Positions 10,888 through 60,598 of a stretch of 64,000 bases of DNA are shown here, piece by piece. The notes under the pieces were generated by a model, which saw only the letters and a list, made by a program, of their open reading frames with translations, was not told the DNA's origin and searched no databases. Location of the stretch: assembly GCA_045612865.1 (NCBI GenBank), contig JAZKZW010000082.1, forward strand, positions 5,135 through 69,134, read 5' to 3'. Position numbers and translations under genes: made by a program. Source of the DNA: Eubacteriales bacterium. GTDB lineage: Bacteria; Bacillota; Clostridia; Oscillospirales; CAG-272. Numbering within the stretch: position 1 is the first letter of the stretch; each line of letters starts with the position of its first letter.

Positions 10888-11073
10888 TCAATTCTTGTTA
10901 CTTTCATTTGCTACATCCTTTATATAATCTTTAATAATTTCATTATTTAATAAGCTAAATAGCTCTTCTTGATTATGTTTATCTATGATTATAGCACAAG
11001 CCTCGTTCCAGCTCAGATCTTCAGCATGATACTCTGCGCCTTCATCTGTTGTTATCCAAATATCTACTTTCAT
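10888..11073 (-). CDS. hypothetical protein
   Basis: 61 aa ORF. Confidence 0.25.
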   Translation of the reverse strand: MKVDIWITTDEGAEYHAEDLSWNEACAIIIDKHNQEELFSLLNNEIIKDYIKDVANESNKN

Positions 11074-12227
11074 TTACCTACTCCTCTATTACTATTCAAA
11101 CCAAAATCATATGTTTGATAAAGGTCAATATAAAACTTTTCCTTTTCATTTAATTCGTTTATGTTGCATTTTTCCAATACTTCAAAAGTAAAGTTATCAA
11201 TACCCTTTTCGCGCGTAAAAGCATAAAGTTGGCTGGTAACAGGGGTATCAATACCTAGTGAACATTTTACGTGTCCAACCCAGCGCTCTTTAATATCTTT
11301 GGCTTGACCAATATAAGAAATACCAGAGTCAATATGTGTTATCTTATATATTCCACTTGCGCCTAAGGCACCTGTGCGCGCCGCAAGTTCATTAACTTTA
11401 TCGCGGTAAAAGGTTGACCATATAAGCATGCGCAAGGGACGCGCTTCGCGCAAATTATATTCAATACTTTGTAAATAAGCCACATCGCGCCTATCTGCTT
11501 CATTAAGCTGAAGCGTGTAAAAAGTTGCCTTATCTTTTATCTCTTGTTCTCGAAGTTGCGCCTCCATTACGGCGGCTCGAGTTGCTCGGATTCCGTCAAG
11601 CTCAGATCGTATGATATCAAGATTTCTTTGGAGCTCTTGTTTTCTTCGCTCAAAAGCTTCCTCATTTCCTCGTATTTCTGCTGCAAGAGCGTCTTGTTCA
11701 GATTCGAAGATGTGACCCAGATTAGCTAAGAGTTCATCATATTCTTGTTCCTTTTTAAAGTATTCTGCTTCAATAGCATCACACCATGACGAGAAAGCTT
11801 GGCGCGCCAAGCGCTATTGATCGCGCATAGTCTCATCTATCGAGTGTTGTAAAGTGCCCATTTGCGCGGTTAATTGTTCATTTTGTGTAAGCAGCGCATT
11901 GTTCTTTGCTTCGTTTTCTGCGAGCGTAAGTTGGCATTTTTGCTATTGTTCAATTAACTCATTTACCGTATTTTCAATAATTTTCTAATTTTTAAGTAAA
12001 TCTTCATTCTTTTGTAAAATTCGTTTATTAGATTGAAGATGTTGCGCGCCTTCATCTGCCAAGCGCTGATTTTCTTTTTCTAGATATTCTTTAGTAACAT
12101 AAAGATTCTAGTTATACATTTCTATATCTATATCTTTTTGTTTTAAATTCTTGTGTTCCCAAATAGTGAAGCCGATACAGAAAGCTCCGCCTAATACGAG
12201 AATAATATATGCTATTACCAATCCCAT
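11070..12227 (-). CDS. GIY-YIG endonuclease with N-terminal TM helix and long coiled coil; four in-frame TAG codons (11814-16, 11943-45, 11985-87, 12108-10)
   Basis: frame from ATG 12227 has only TAG stops (no TAA/TGA) for 386 codons; C-terminal GIYKITHIDSGISYIGQAKDIKERW. Confidence 0.6.
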
Positions 12228-12237
12228 AGTAGAAAGA

Positions 12238-12270
12238 AAGGGACTAGGTATTATTTACTTAGTCCCAATA
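12238..12270 (-). terminator. hairpin GGGACTA...TAGTCCC followed by T-tract
   Basis: inverted repeat + TTTCTTTCT on minus strand. Confidence 0.4.
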
Positions 12271-12279
12271 TTTATTTAA

Positions 12280-12537
12280 TTACTCTGCCTCGGGAGCAGT
12301 TGGGTCGAAGTTGCGGCCCTTGTCGGTCAGACGGATGTACTTAACCTTACCACCAGTAATAGCAACCTCTTCGCGCTCAACGAGCTGACGGTGTCTATCC
12401 AAAGCGGTGATAGTTCCATTTACTGACTTTACTTCGAGGTGAAGTGCGCCCGCGATATCAGTTGCGGTCAGGTCCTCACCATCGTGCTCTTGTAGATACT
12501 TAAGAATGTTTACTGCATTTTCCTTTAATGCTGCCAT
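12280..12537 (-). CDS. hypothetical small protein
   Basis: 85 aa ORF, TAA stop. Confidence 0.4.
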   Translation of the reverse strand: MAALKENAVNILKYLQEHDGEDLTATDIAGALHLEVKSVNGTITALDRHRQLVEREEVAITGGKVKYIRLTDKGRNFDPTAPEAE

Positions 12538-12602
12538 GTTTGTGTTCTCCTTTAAAATTCATATATTTTATGTGAATGATTTCTTTCATTCTTTACATAC
12601 TT

Positions 12603-57401: not shown

Positions 57402-57710
57402 TTACAGTCCTAATCTACGCAACATTTGAGTTACGTTTTCTTTCTCTTGATCAGTTGGCGCGATAGGTTCTGTGCGCACAGGGGTGGGAGTAGTTGTTGT
57501 AGGCGCGGGGAAATCTCCCGGAAGCGCATTATCTGCGCCGCTTTCAACATTTTCTTTTGCGCAAGTTAATACGCATTTTACTTGTAAACTTTCGCCATTT
57601 TCATAGCCGCAAATACGAATTTCTTTTCCATCATTATATAAAAATGACCCAGAAAATGTTTCAAGTATTTTGCTTTGAATTTCTTTTTTCAACTGTTGTC
57701 CTTTTGCCAT
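57402..57710 (-). CDS. hypothetical protein
   Basis: 102 aa ORF. Confidence 0.3.
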   Translation of the reverse strand: MAKGQQLKKEIQSKILETFSGSFLYNDGKEIRICGYENGESLQVKCVLTCAKENVESGADNALPGDFPAPTTTTPTPVRTEPIAPTDQEKENVTQMLRRLGL

Positions 57711-57838
57711 TTTTTTCTCCTTTTTTATTTTATAATATATTATAACATAAATTTAATAAAAAATCAATTAATATTTTCCCAGTGAAGTTTTTCTCCTGTG
57801 GTTGGATGTTTTCCCGCACTTTTTTTCCTTCCTGCAAT

Positions 57839-58594
57839 CTAATCTATAATACCCGTTGAACTTTTTAATCCTGCCCAAGCAGCAGCTTCTTTTCGAGATT
57901 CAAAAATTTGACCCGTTTCAATACATCTAATACGTTTATTCTGACATTCTTTTGCTCGTTGTTTTTGATAATCAGAAGTAGTTTTACCATACATTGGATT
58001 CTTTTCGCCTATTTTTGATTGTCTAATTTTTTCTTTTGCCTGTTCAGAATGTCCCTTCCCTTGTGTAGGAGTTCCATGCTCAATAATATAAGCTTTACGT
58101 GCTTCACTAATTCTTTTTTTCCCTTCTTCAGAAAGTTTCCAATGTCTATTTTCCCTTGCGAGTTTTTGTTTTTCAATGTATTCTTGGTCTTGCCATTTTT
58201 CTTTCATTAATTTAGATATTTTTTCACGATGATCTATATCTTGCCAAAGAGCTTTAGCATGTTTACTTAGTTTTTCTTTAGTGTCATTTGTAACATTTCG
58301 ATTTAATCCGCCTTCTTGGATATTATAACCTTTCTCTTCATTAGTAGAATCATAATATTTTATCCAATAAATTTCTCGTTCATTAGCTTGTTCTAAAGTT
58401 AAATTTATTTCTAGGATAATGTGTTCAAACTTATCCCAACCATATTTTTTAATTGCATTAAAAAAACGTGGACAATTTTCATATCGTTTTCCATTTTCTC
58501 CCCAACGATATTCAGGCTTCTAATTTGTTTGTCCAATATAAAGTTTACCATTTATCTTGTTTTTATGCATATAAATGCAATAGTTATTTGTCAT
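57839..58594 (-). CDS. GIY-YIG homing endonuclease with NUMOD3-like C-terminus; one in-frame TAG at 58520-58522
   Basis: ATG 58594 (AGGAGAAAATT RBS); YCIYMHKNKINGKLYIGQT motif; in frame with table ORF 57839..58207. Confidence 0.55.
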
Positions 58595-58725
58595 AATTTT
58601 CTCCTTTAATATATTAATTTATTTTAATGACTTTCACTAATATATTACTTTTATATTAAATAAATTATATAACTTTAACCTGAACTTTTTCACTGTTATT
58701 CTCCATATTTTTTAAGAAAAATCAA

Positions 58726-59547
58726 TCAGTTTTTCTTATTCATGATAATAATATTTTTATCTTCTAAATGCTTACTAATGCTTAAAATATGGTCACAGAT
58801 AGTACATTTCTCTCCCGCCATGCATTTGCGCTTACAGGTAGCGCGCATTGTTCCAAATACTGGTAAGATGCGTCTTGAATCAAAATCTAAATCGAAATCA
58901 AGAATGATCTCTTTTAAATCTCCAAACCAGAGTCCCTTTTGATAGATGCGAAGTAATACTGCTTGGCGATCAAGAGGTCCCCAAAATTCGAGTACATCAA
59001 TATAAGGCTCGTATTGCGCCACATCTTCTGGGCGGATAAAGAACTTCTTAAGCGCGGGAGTAGATCTAACATTTGCTTGAGCAATGTTAGGGAATGCGCG
59101 AACGGTGACCTGTTGCGCGCTACATAGCGCCTTTGCGCGTTCTAAATCAAAACAGATATTCTCTGTTAAGTAAACATCACTAACTCCTAATGATAATAAA
59201 TAATTTAATTCATCAAAGTTAGTCACACAATCGCCCATAAAATAAGGGACTTTAAGATTGTCGATACTCTTTGTTAGAGATGGATTCTCTCTTGAGTCAA
59301 ACGCGCGGCATTGATAAAACTTGACCGCAAAATTATAATCTGGATATTTCTCATGAATGGCGTTTAATTTGCGCCACTCCTCTCCTTGCGAAAAATCTAT
59401 AACATCTTTCACACAGAGAATAACTCGTTGAGTAGAATGATCTTCAAGGAACTTCACCAATTGTTCGTCTTGGCGATCATATTGAATGGTGATTTCATCA
59501 AAGCCTTTAAGATCCATATGTTTTAAAAACTCTACACTATATTTCAT
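58726..59547 (-). CDS. hypothetical protein with C-terminal Cys cluster
   Basis: 273 aa ORF. Confidence 0.35.
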   Translation of the reverse strand: MKYSVEFLKHMDLKGFDEITIQYDRQDEQLVKFLEDHSTQRVILCVKDVIDFSQGEEWRKLNAIHEKYPDYNFAVKFYQCRAFDSRENPSLTKSIDNLKVPYFMGDCVTNFDELNYLLSLGVSDVYLTENICFDLERAKALCSAQQVTVRAFPNIAQANVRSTPALKKFFIRPEDVAQYEPYIDVLEFWGPLDRQAVLLRIYQKGLWFGDLKEIILDFDLDFDSRRILPVFGTMRATCKRKCMAGEKCTICDHILSISKHLEDKNIIIMNKKN

Positions 59548-59670
59548 TTAGCTCCTCCTATTGAAAAAAATTTATATCAATTCTATATAAATTATATATT
59601 ATATTTTTAATAATATCAAGAAAGGAAGGCAAAACCAAGGTTACTTAAATAATTTTAAAGGAGGATATTT

Positions 59671-60598
59671 ATGGGAGCTTTAGTACAAATTAACAAAGGT
59701 GATAAATTTGGTCGATGGACAGTCCTACAAAGAACTGTGGGCTCAGGAGGGAAAGGATAGAAGGTTTACTATGATTGCATTTGTGACTGTGGTACGATAA
59801 AATCAGTTTGTGGGGCGTCTTTGCGGAAAGGAGTATCTAGATCTTGTGGATGTTATAGTAAAGAACAAAATAGTAAAAATAAAAAAATAAACTTACAAGG
59901 TTAGCGATTCGGCAGATTAGTAGTTTTACAAGAATTAAATGAGCGTATTAATAATAAAGTAGTGTGGCTATGCCAATGTGACTGTGGACAACAAACTTCA
60001 GTAATGTCTACTTAGTTAATTTCAGGGAAAACACAGAGTTGCGGATGTTTACATAAAGAAAAAATGTCTAAATATTTTATTAAAGATATAACTGGGTTAA
60101 AAAGTGGAAAATTGGTTGCGCTAGAGCCAACTGCAAAAAGAAGTCAAAACTGTGTTGTATGGAAGTGCCAATGTGACTGCGGAAAAACTTACGAAGTTGC
60201 TTCTACATATCTTGTTCATCAAGAAGTTTTATCTTGTGGATGTTCTTCAGTGTCGAAAGGCGAATTAAAAATACAATCTTTATTAAATGATAATAAAATA
60301 ACTTTTTATGAATAGAAAACATTTAATTCTTGCCGTTTTCTAGAAAGTAATGCTTTAGCAAGATTTGACTTTTATGTGAATAATCAATATTTAATTGAAT
60401 ATGATGGAGAGCAACATTTTCAACCCGTTGAACTATTTGGAGGAGAAGAGCAATTTAAAATTCAACAAGCACGCGATGCTTATAAAAATCAATGGTGTAA
60501 AGAAAATAATATTCCACTTATTCGTATTCCATATACAAAACTTGATACATTATGTATTGACGATTTATTACTTGAAACTAGTTAGTTTATAGTAAAAT
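59671..60598 (+). CDS. CxC zinc-finger + Vsr/EDxHD-like putative homing endonuclease; five in-frame TAG codons (59758, 59902, 60013, 60313, 60586)
   Basis: ATG 59671 with AAAGGAGGA RBS; table ORFs 60064..60315 and 60376..60585 are in this frame; CQCDCG x3, IEYDGEQHF...RIPY. Confidence 0.55.

Follow-up and report, generated by a model that had tools for sequence, protein, structure and literature searches.

Introduction

In phage T4, the translation of I-TevI, I-TevII, I-TevIII, mobE and segB is delayed by RNA structure, and the splicing of the I-TevI intron needs this delay. For the TGA-recoded Agate phages, preferential recoding was reported for an endonuclease of a group I intron located in an early gene, and its in-frame stops were predicted to block the endonuclease until late (Borges et al., bioRxiv 2021, doi 10.1101/2021.08.26.457843). 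The phAss-1 or 'Phassvirus' group consists of TAG-recoded gut phages of ~136 kb, the endonucleases of which were not discussed (PMC10607447). In this study, a stretch of phage DNA of 64,000 nucleotides (nt), deposited as part of a Eubacteriales bacterium (GCA_045612865.1, contig JAZKZW010000082.1, positions 5,135 to 69,134 of the forward strand), was analyzed and is called the window in the following. Ten endonuclease-like genes were found in the window, and seven of them carried in-frame TAG codons, which were rare in all other genes. An earlier note on this DNA had offered two readings, namely that the selfish genes are tuned to late, suppression-dependent expression, or that they arrived from fully recoded relatives. 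It called both readings unusual, which was overstated.

Results and Discussion

TAG Codons in the Endonuclease-Like Genes

The ten endonuclease-like genes are listed in Table 1. Each of them had a PHROG match with a homing, HNH or intron nuclease annotation, and GIY-YIG, HNH, LAGLIDADG and PDDEXK_5 domains were assigned by Pfam. The genes reported in the earlier note were all recovered by Pfam, PHROGs and NCBIfam, and TAG was present, as claimed there, in every GIY-YIG (4, 4 and 2), CxC (9, 1 and 5) and LAGLIDADG (1) gene and absent from the HNH genes. Only the end of GIY-YIG_3 was misplaced: position 57839 belongs to its second TAG, and with this codon read as sense the open reading frame (ORF) runs to a TGA at 57764. 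Altogether, 26 TAG were counted in the 2632 codons of the ten genes, compared with 2 in the 13845 codons of 70 other genes (Fisher p = 5e-19). At the gene level, the bias was 7/10 against 2/70 (p = 1e-6). The housekeeping genes were mostly TAG-free, as had been stated (68/70), with the correction that the RecJ-like and AAA_24 genes carry one TAG each. The TAG:CAG ratio was 26:8 in the endonucleases and 2:171 in the other genes, and the TAG share of glutamine codons ranged from 0 to 56% across the endonucleases. All in-frame stops in the seven TAG-bearing genes were TAG (26/26), with no TAA or TGA.

The bias was not restricted to the window. Among 46 related loci, 38 TAG were found in 6746 aligned endonuclease residues, compared with 5 in 97991 residues of other homologues, and the density per ORF over 66 loci was 4.4 per 1000 codons for endonucleases and 0.48 for others. 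In addition, TAG-rich endonucleases amid TAG-free neighbours recurred in the unrelated recoded contigs L074, L079, L083 and L098 (such labels denote the related loci or contigs used in the comparisons). A GIY-YIG gene with 4 TAG was also found just upstream of dnaE in L047 and L048, and was absent in L051.

Decoding of TAG as Glutamine

The window phage decodes TAG as glutamine (code 15), because the seven ORFs that are broken under code 11 become complete proteins with TAG as sense, TAG terminates none of the 70 non-endonuclease genes (TAA 48, TGA 22, TAG 0), homologues carry CAG or CAA at TAG positions, and a glutamine-like transfer RNA (tRNA) with the anticodon CUA is encoded. This tRNA(CUA) is the decoder needed by every TAG-containing gene. 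Its nearest tRNA in the window was tRNA-Gln(UUG), with 61/76 positions identical, and its discriminator is G73. The syntenic position of the CUA tRNA is shared in L004, and the same neighbourhood is used in L037 and L039. Moreover, conserved genes had no TAG terminator in most related loci, and family-wide the conserved early genes almost never end in TAG.

The single positions were in agreement with this decoding. With its first TAG as glutamine, the catalytic motif of GIY-YIG_2 reads YIGqS. The N-terminal extension of the RecJ-like protein is conserved in relatives, and its codon 18 is TAG in six loci, CAG in L049 and L060 (proteins 94-96% identical) and CAA in four more distant loci. The N-terminus of the AAA_24 protein, MADFNLLDIVPHqVSR, is conserved as well, and its TAG position is occupied by Q (CAG) in L052 and by K in other loci.

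Some further codon observations were made. Both housekeeping TAGs lie at the extreme N-terminus, with an in-frame restart codon behind each of them: RecJ has TAG-GTG, and AAA_24 has AAGAGGA-N6-GTG nine codons further on. Translation could give a short isoform before suppression and a long one afterwards, or the TAGs could simply be tolerated. Near the right end of the window, the first plus-strand ORF, a small transmembrane (TM) peptide, stops at a TAG in frame with the next ORF; no other stop lies between the two, and TAG as glutamine gives a single protein of 166 amino acids (aa). In L001, a tRNA with the anticodon UCA (ARAGORN 'SeC') is a possible opal suppressor, yet TGA ends many L001 genes.

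Comparison with Late Genes of Related Phages

No virion or lysis gene was recognized within the window, and the selfish/housekeeping contrast appears stark because the window has no late genes. The late genes of the window phage and its closest relatives were not recovered with right-end proteins in IMG/VR and JGI metagenomes; those of the window phage were not recovered with the right-end DNA pattern or a walk from the gene at 50613..50972, and a late-protein profile from distant relatives returned only already known contigs. In these distant relatives, the vault-like protein of which is 55-57% identical, a divergent module of large tail/baseplate-like proteins adjoins the vault-like gene.

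The tail/baseplate-like genes of L015, L016, L022 and L031 contained 188 TAG in 11402 codons (69 in 3142 codons in one example) and the relatives' endolysins contained 49 in 3127, both ~1.6% of codons, compared with 0 in 5714 for early genes. Endolysins on the 'early' strand were as TAG-rich as the late genes. The concentration of TAG in late and lysis genes was seen in these four relatives and in L012, and the conserved early genes were essentially TAG-free across 71 related loci. The phage family follows the published pattern of recoded phages, in which recoding affects the late and lysis genes, and the early genes can still be read with the standard code. The TAG:CAG ratio was 188:65 in the relatives' late genes, ~3:1 as in the endonucleases (Fisher p = 1.0). 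Because this ratio matches that of the relatives' late genes while the early genes are TAG-free, the endonucleases represent a late dialect within the early region. Their use of TAG is probably not unique when the entire genome is considered. The earlier note had named as its refutation a sampling artefact of the window; the TAG bias itself proved real, and the contrast between selfish and housekeeping genes is partly due to sampling. Furthermore, CAG and TAG were swapped in place between relatives 93-96% identical, indicating that TAGs arise in place.

Proposed Mechanism and Alternative Explanations

The explanation that we consider probable, if by no means assured, combines a window that is the early/replication region of a ~130-140 kb phage, early genes purged of TAG, endonucleases in the late dialect, a delayed full-length product and an origin of the TAGs within the lineage. 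Genes acting before or independently of tRNA(CUA) would have been purged of TAG, and the scattered endonuclease genes would not. The host ribosome is predicted to terminate inside the TAG-bearing endonuclease ORFs until the suppressor tRNA accumulates. The full-length endonuclease would be delayed, because tRNA(CUA) must compete with host release factor 1, and would appear only from mid or late infection; every additional TAG (up to nine) probably lowers the yield. The TAGs would have come mainly from CAG-to-TAG change within recoded lineages without counterselection, and not from an exotic fully recoded donor. Both TAG-bearing non-endonuclease genes lie downstream of tRNA(CUA) in transcription order, a position that fits the temporal model as judged from gene order.

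Several points weigh against this explanation. The RecJ-like and AAA_24 genes carry TAG, so suppression may act by the replication or middle stage and the delay could be short. The timing of the endonucleases, early or late, is a prediction from the sequence. The late-dialect comparison uses the distant relatives described above, which also have lower GC, and the TAG share of glutamine codons was 19% in the endonucleases compared with 29% in the relatives' late genes (p = 0.02). In addition, the three TAG-free endonucleases had 0 TAG in 17 glutamine codons (P = 0.015) and CxC_1 had 9 in 16 (p = 4e-4); drift at a uniform rate does not explain both extremes. Three dnaE-inserted endonucleases of L062 also lack TAG, although TAG is never a stop there. 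The extreme TAG content of CxC_1 is the single feature suggestive of a long residence in recoded genomes.

Adaptive gating, in which selection on the phage or on the element keeps the TAGs so that the nucleases are late and of low dose, is possible but must be held tentatively. It would protect intron splicing and early genome integrity, replacing the hairpins that sequester ribosome-binding sites and the late promoters of T4. The idea was proposed in print for the intron endonuclease family preferentially recoded in the Agate phages, and T4 offers a parallel, since the splicing efficiency of I-TevI needs delayed translation and the free-standing mobE and segB are also translationally restrained. 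In the window, the first TAG lay within the first 40 codons in 6/7 TAG-bearing endonucleases and in the catalytic motif of GIY-YIG_2, and one TAG position was conserved among the orthologues of the gene at 11070..12227. The recurrence of TAG-rich endonucleases across several recoded phage lineages also favours selection. However, a 5' bias of TAG was not found in the endonucleases, the first TAG being no earlier than expected by chance (combined p = 0.22; Kolmogorov-Smirnov p = 0.12). Moreover, three endonucleases in the window and three in L062 have no TAG, the TAG:CAG ratio equals that of late genes, as expected without special selection, and the sole TAG of the LAGLIDADG ORF is so far downstream that ribosomes would still enter the intron. 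Of the reading in the earlier note, late and suppression-dependent expression fits the anatomy and the published precedent, but tuning by selection is not supported, given the missing 5' bias, the uneven density and the three TAG-free genes.

A common transcriptional signal was also sought. No late-promoter motif common to the TAG-bearing genes was found upstream of them; the sole shared element was ATATATAAATGAYAAAGAAAATA, which also stands upstream of the TAG-free HNH_2. Its two identical 23-nt copies lie ~20-40 nt upstream of the LAGLIDADG ORF and HNH_2, none being expected by chance, and a looser version lies upstream of CxC_1. Endonuclease cassettes may have this element in common as a promoter or leader. 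Short TATATAAAT-like matches upstream of the TAG-bearing genes were unspecific, and sigma-70-like sites were no commoner than in shuffled sequence.

A broader proposal, which seems doubtful to us, is that the alternative code acts as a general leash, with TAGs maintained to silence several endonuclease families, free-standing as well as intron-borne, until the suppressor tRNA is present, setting timing and dose and confining the elements to the gene pool of recoded phages. If it were true, a copy homing into a standard-code relative would be dead on arrival.

It is improbable that the TAG-bearing endonucleases came already recoded from other TAG-recoded phages, so that their TAG content records the donors. 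The GC content of the endonucleases was 0.33, compared with 0.39 for their neighbours, which would suit an import, but low GC is usual for homing endonuclease genes. CxC_1 and CxC_2 are insertions because they are missing at the same sites in close relatives, the TAG content of CxC_1 is far above the rest and above the relatives' late genes, and numerous other phages have CxC family members, in some cases with TAG (L074, L079, L083, L089 and L098). However, no donor was found: the best IMG/VR relatives were at most 48% identical for CxC_3, and there were none for CxC_1. TAG positions differ between family members, no family genome had TAG in conserved early genes, and the gene at 11070..12227 bears TAG although it is vertically inherited. 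The arrival from fully recoded relatives proposed before was not supported, given the essentially TAG-free early genes in 71 loci, the shared late-gene TAG:CAG ratio and the swaps in place; a fully recoded donor is not needed, because no genome with TAG-using housekeeping genes was found and the swaps occur in place. Finally, although homing endonuclease genes commonly degenerate after fixation and all seven ORFs are broken under code 11, it is hardly credible that they are pseudogenes with TAGs as real stops, since every one of the 26 interruptions is TAG, with no TAA, TGA or frameshift (P ~3e-21 from the off-frame stop frequencies), the domains are complete in profile matches, and TAG is glutamine elsewhere in the genome and never a terminator in 70 genes.

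Table 1. Features of the window and of related loci (positions in related loci are preceded by the locus label)
Feature	Position	Strand	Size	TAG codons	Remarks
TM, coiled-coil and C-terminal GIY-YIG protein	11070..12227	-	385 aa	4 (codons 40, 81, 95, 138)	
gyrA insertion	18233..19530	-	1298 nt		splits gyrA between YHPHG and DSSIY (YHPHG/DSS)
LAGLIDADG ORF in gyrA insertion	18491..19423	-	310 aa	1 (codon 122)	Pfam LAGLIDADG_3 4.4e-8; phrog_4645 5.7e-35
CxC_1, CxC-repeat and Vsr-like nuclease	24949..25761	-	270 aa	9	free-standing
HNH_1	30124..30732	-	202 aa	0	Pfam HNH_3; PHROG HNH; directly downstream of vault-like gene
CxC_2, CxC-repeat and Vsr-like nuclease	35176..35934	-	252 aa	1 (codon 38)	
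PDDEXK_5 ORF (PD-(D/E)XK, I-Ssp6803I family)	44404..44847	-	147 aa	0	Pfam PF11645 2.2e-20
HNH_2	49842..50480	-	212 aa	0	inside tRNA array; Pfam HNH 1.6e-5; phrog_10822 7e-39
GIY-YIG_2 with helix-turn-helix tail	54449..55258	-		4	likely start ATG 55225; Pfam GIY-YIG 3.7e-9
GIY-YIG_3 (GIY-YIG and NUMOD3)	57764..58594	-	276 aa	2	both domains in Pfam; phrog_314 1.5e-32
CxC_3, CxC-repeat and Vsr-like nuclease	59671..60600	+	309 aa	5	phrog_374 3e-47
Suppressor tRNA(CUA), Gln-like	22444..22519	-			ARAGORN; Rfam tRNA 46 bits
RecJ-like exonuclease	626..2419	-		1 (codon 18; 2366..2368)	start TTG 2419 behind strong Shine-Dalgarno sequence GGGGGAGGTG
AAA_24 (Sak4-like) gene	7407..8411	-		1 (codon 13; 8373..8375)	
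23-nt element, two copies	19445..19467; 50497..50519	-	23 nt		
Interrupted tRNA-Ala	44349..44918	-			halves 44881..44918 and 44349..44388
Interrupted tRNAs in relatives	L001 5328..5863 and 7650..8399; L032 3256..3788; L098 8038..8581				
Possible RNA repair set	25820..28106	-			
cREC_REC domain protein	35995..36306	-			
Vault-like protein	30767..33235	-	822 aa		
Flotillin/SPFH protein	39756..41288	-			near vault-like gene
ROOL RNA	42702..43321	-			Rfam RF03087, 161.6 bits, full length
tRNA with 8-nt anticodon loop	52677..52751	-			ARAGORN anticodon 'agtt'
Degenerate tRNAs	47186..47257; 47994..48066	-			Asp- and His-like anticodons; detected by Rfam only
Region without ORF	46131..47185		~1 kb		inside tRNA array
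TAG-joined ORFs	62948..63448	+	166 aa		
CxC_2 copy fused to cREC_REC gene	L091 5767..6555				
dnaE-inserted endonuclease ORFs	L062 16467..20894			0	three ORFs
Interruptions of AAA_24 gene	L063 3261..4339; L065 3574..4525		~1 kb		
tRNA with anticodon UCA	L001 3634..3709				

Nuclease Families and Insertion Sites

The nuclease domain of the protein encoded at 11070..12227 comprises residues 291-372, C-terminal to the TM segment and the coiled coil. It was matched by Pfam GIY-YIG (1.4e-7), by TIGR01453 with 58 bits (cut-off 56) and by a PHROG annotated 'homing endonuclease'. No presence/absence polymorphism was found: syntenic orthologues are kept in L049 and L051, with TAG positions partly shared and one exactly common. 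Because it is conserved in relatives with a common TAG position, this is probably a vertically inherited resident gene and not a freely mobile one. Its earlier description as a homing or selfish gene was therefore correct for the GIY-YIG family but not for mobility.

CxC_1 matched PHROGs 559, 7140 and 9084 ('HNH', 'intron encoded nuclease' and 'homing endonuclease'), and in L001, L004 and L037 the genes flanking its site adjoin directly. CxC_2 matched PHROGs 559 and 374 at ~1e-36 and is absent at the same site in L004. CxC_3 is the sole plus-strand member of the ten, and its relatives in IMG/VR occur with and without TAG. The CxC proteins are homologous to the intron-encoded nucleases of Twort-like Staphylococcus phages, and only sub-threshold matches to DUF2726 and DUF5889 were found in Pfam. 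Sequence and profile searches of the PDB with the CxC nuclease domain gave nothing significant. For a low-confidence single-sequence model of the C-terminal domain (pLDDT 54.6), the top Foldseek matches were AbaSI, PvuRts1I, I-Bth0305I and Vsr, with E values of 7e-4 to 2e-2. Of the label 'Vsr-like', the endonuclease family stands, and the Vsr fold of this domain is putative, as suggested by that low-confidence model. A copy of CxC_2 in L091, 65% identical, has lost its N-terminal half and is fused in frame to a truncated cREC_REC gene, the counterpart of the gene just upstream of CxC_2 in the window.

In L001, L004 and L037, HNH_1 likewise follows the vault-like gene immediately, and in L002 and L003 it lies further downstream. 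It was only 35-50% identical to the copies at the same site, compared with 60-85% for neighbouring genes. GIY-YIG_2 matched phrog_7168 (1.6e-39) from residue 12 onward. Presence/absence at the same site among close relatives was seen for CxC_1, CxC_2 and the gyrA insertion; the comparison had no related locus spanning GIY-YIG_2, GIY-YIG_3, CxC_3 or HNH_2.

The gyrA insertion was real, as the homologues of the two exons adjoin without interruption in L009, L012, L014, L020, L022, L029 and L035. By reading of the sequence, the last base of the 5' exon is U and that of the insert is G, and a non-coding tail of 258 nt follows the ORF on the 3' side. Rfam group I models did not match it, either at the gathering score or with the threshold relaxed to E<=1. 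The insertion is presumed to be a group I intron; of the earlier statement that the LAGLIDADG gene sits in a gyrA intron, the insertion was established and the group I core had no match in Rfam.

Comparable insertions were observed in relatives. The gene dnaE (DnaE-type polymerase) of L062, L053, L057, L065 and L066 carries one to three insertions of ~1.2 kb with GIY-YIG or CxC ORFs. The AAA_24 gene is interrupted at its P-loop in L063 by an insert with a LAGLIDADG ORF (1 TAG) and in L065 by one with an HNH ORF (0 TAG).

The PDDEXK_5 Insert in tRNA-Ala

The PD-(D/E)XK gene lies, as reported before, inside tRNA-Ala. Its ORF fills an insert of 490-492 nt that interrupts an Ala-type tRNA (G3:U70, A73) in its anticodon loop; the tRNA halves were read from the sequence and with the intron option of ARAGORN. 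The non-coding parts are ~33 nt (5') and ~15 nt (3'). Since only ~48 nt lie outside the 444-nt ORF, a group I ribozyme would not fit, and a search against Rfam group I models gave no signal even at E<=10. Base pairing between the two ends of the insert continues the anticodon stem as a long rod (RNAfold z = -5.7).

L001, L032 and L098 have homologues of PDDEXK_5, located within tRNA-Asp and tRNA-Met genes. In the window and these relatives, the anticodon-loop inserts were 458-665 nt long and consisted almost wholly of the PDDEXK_5 ORF. In the Asp and Met cases, the junctions follow U and G, and the same rules applied in the window give the anticodon UUA, not UGC. Such inserts may represent tRNA introns of a type that lacks a ribozyme.

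A possible RNA repair set was also observed in the window. It consists of a metallophosphoesterase-like ORF, identified by reading the sequence and with no Pfam family reported, an AAA_33 kinase-like protein and an RNA ligase with a PHA02142 OB domain; the cREC_REC (cyclic-phosphate processing) domain protein is a further member. This set would matter if the maturation of the interrupted tRNAs depends on proteins.

Gene Content of the Window and Relatives

Nearly all genes of the window lie on the minus strand, and the GC content is ~0.38. The replication and nucleotide-metabolism genes recognized by Pfam include the RecJ-like exonuclease, a DnaB-like helicase, the AAA_24 ATPase and an NAD-dependent ligase. 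Further members of this set were GyrB, the split GyrA, RNase H, RNA ligase, a sigma-70 family factor, pyrimidine-dimer glycosylase, isochorismatase, NAPRTase, the flotillin-like protein and the vault-shoulder-like protein. About 26 tRNA genes form an array at 42.3-54.4 kb, with the ROOL RNA at its edge.

No close relative of the window was found in the GenBank phage collection, and no entry showed nucleotide similarity. The relatives in IMG/VR form a family of 90-190 kb contigs, with RecJ-like proteins up to 95% identical. The vault-like protein, which has major-vault-protein shoulder and repeat domains, is conserved throughout the phage family, with 52-74% identity in 46 IMG/VR contigs.

Comparison with Known Systems

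The tRNA insert resembles that of I-Ssp6803I, which is carried by the group I intron of a cyanobacterial tRNA-fMet gene, in its ORF family and its anticodon-loop site. It differs in that it is not embedded in a self-splicing group I intron, and in that the junctions, for an Ala (UGC) anticodon, would break the U / omega-G rule. The CxC nucleases are like I-Bth0305I and other Vsr-fold nucleases in the low-confidence fold matches given above, and their homologues in the phages Twort, Romulus and Remus are annotated as intron-encoded nucleases. Unlike the Vsr-fold nucleases, they have the motif E-x-D-G-x-x-H instead of EDxHD and an N-terminus of CxCxC repeats.

As in T4, the endonuclease ORFs lie in early transcripts, and their translation is predicted to be restrained until late. 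T4 achieves this under the standard code by hairpins over ribosome-binding sites and late promoters, whereas the window phage would do so by termination at TAG until the suppressor tRNA is available. The window phage shares with phAss-1 (PMC10607447) the genome size class, tens of tRNA genes, tRNA-Sup(CUA), TAG as glutamine and a DnaE-type polymerase. The distribution of TAG is similar too, since phAss-1 has it mostly in virion genes and in some DNA-processing genes (PMC10607447). Unlike phAss-1, the window is without nucleotide similarity to the searched phage collection, where its vault-like protein matches only three huge phages at ~40% identity.

These findings do not overturn the current understanding. 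They extend a single published remark, on one intron endonuclease family and TGA, to TAG recoding across a whole phage family, and they offer a concrete system for asking whether code switching times or restrains selfish elements. Because standard gene callers break TAG-bearing endonucleases, the mobile-element load and the intron content of early regions are under-counted. In addition, the TAG share of glutamine codons may roughly mark the residence time of an element in recoded genomes.

The closest likeness is to the recoded gut phages of Borges et al. (doi 10.1101/2021.08.26.457843), with which the window phage shares a suppressor tRNA of its own, early genes that can be read with the standard code and a recoded endonuclease inserted in an early gene; the concentration of the recoded stop in late and lysis genes was seen in its distant relatives. 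Compared with the Agate phages, the recoded codon is TAG (Gln) instead of TGA (Trp), seven TAG-bearing genes of four nuclease types are present, mostly free-standing and not intron-encoded, and the lineage is distinct, with a vault-like protein, gyrase, DnaE and a large tRNA array. The window is a broader instance of the known behaviour of recoded phages, with TAG as the recoded codon and four nuclease families, mostly free-standing.

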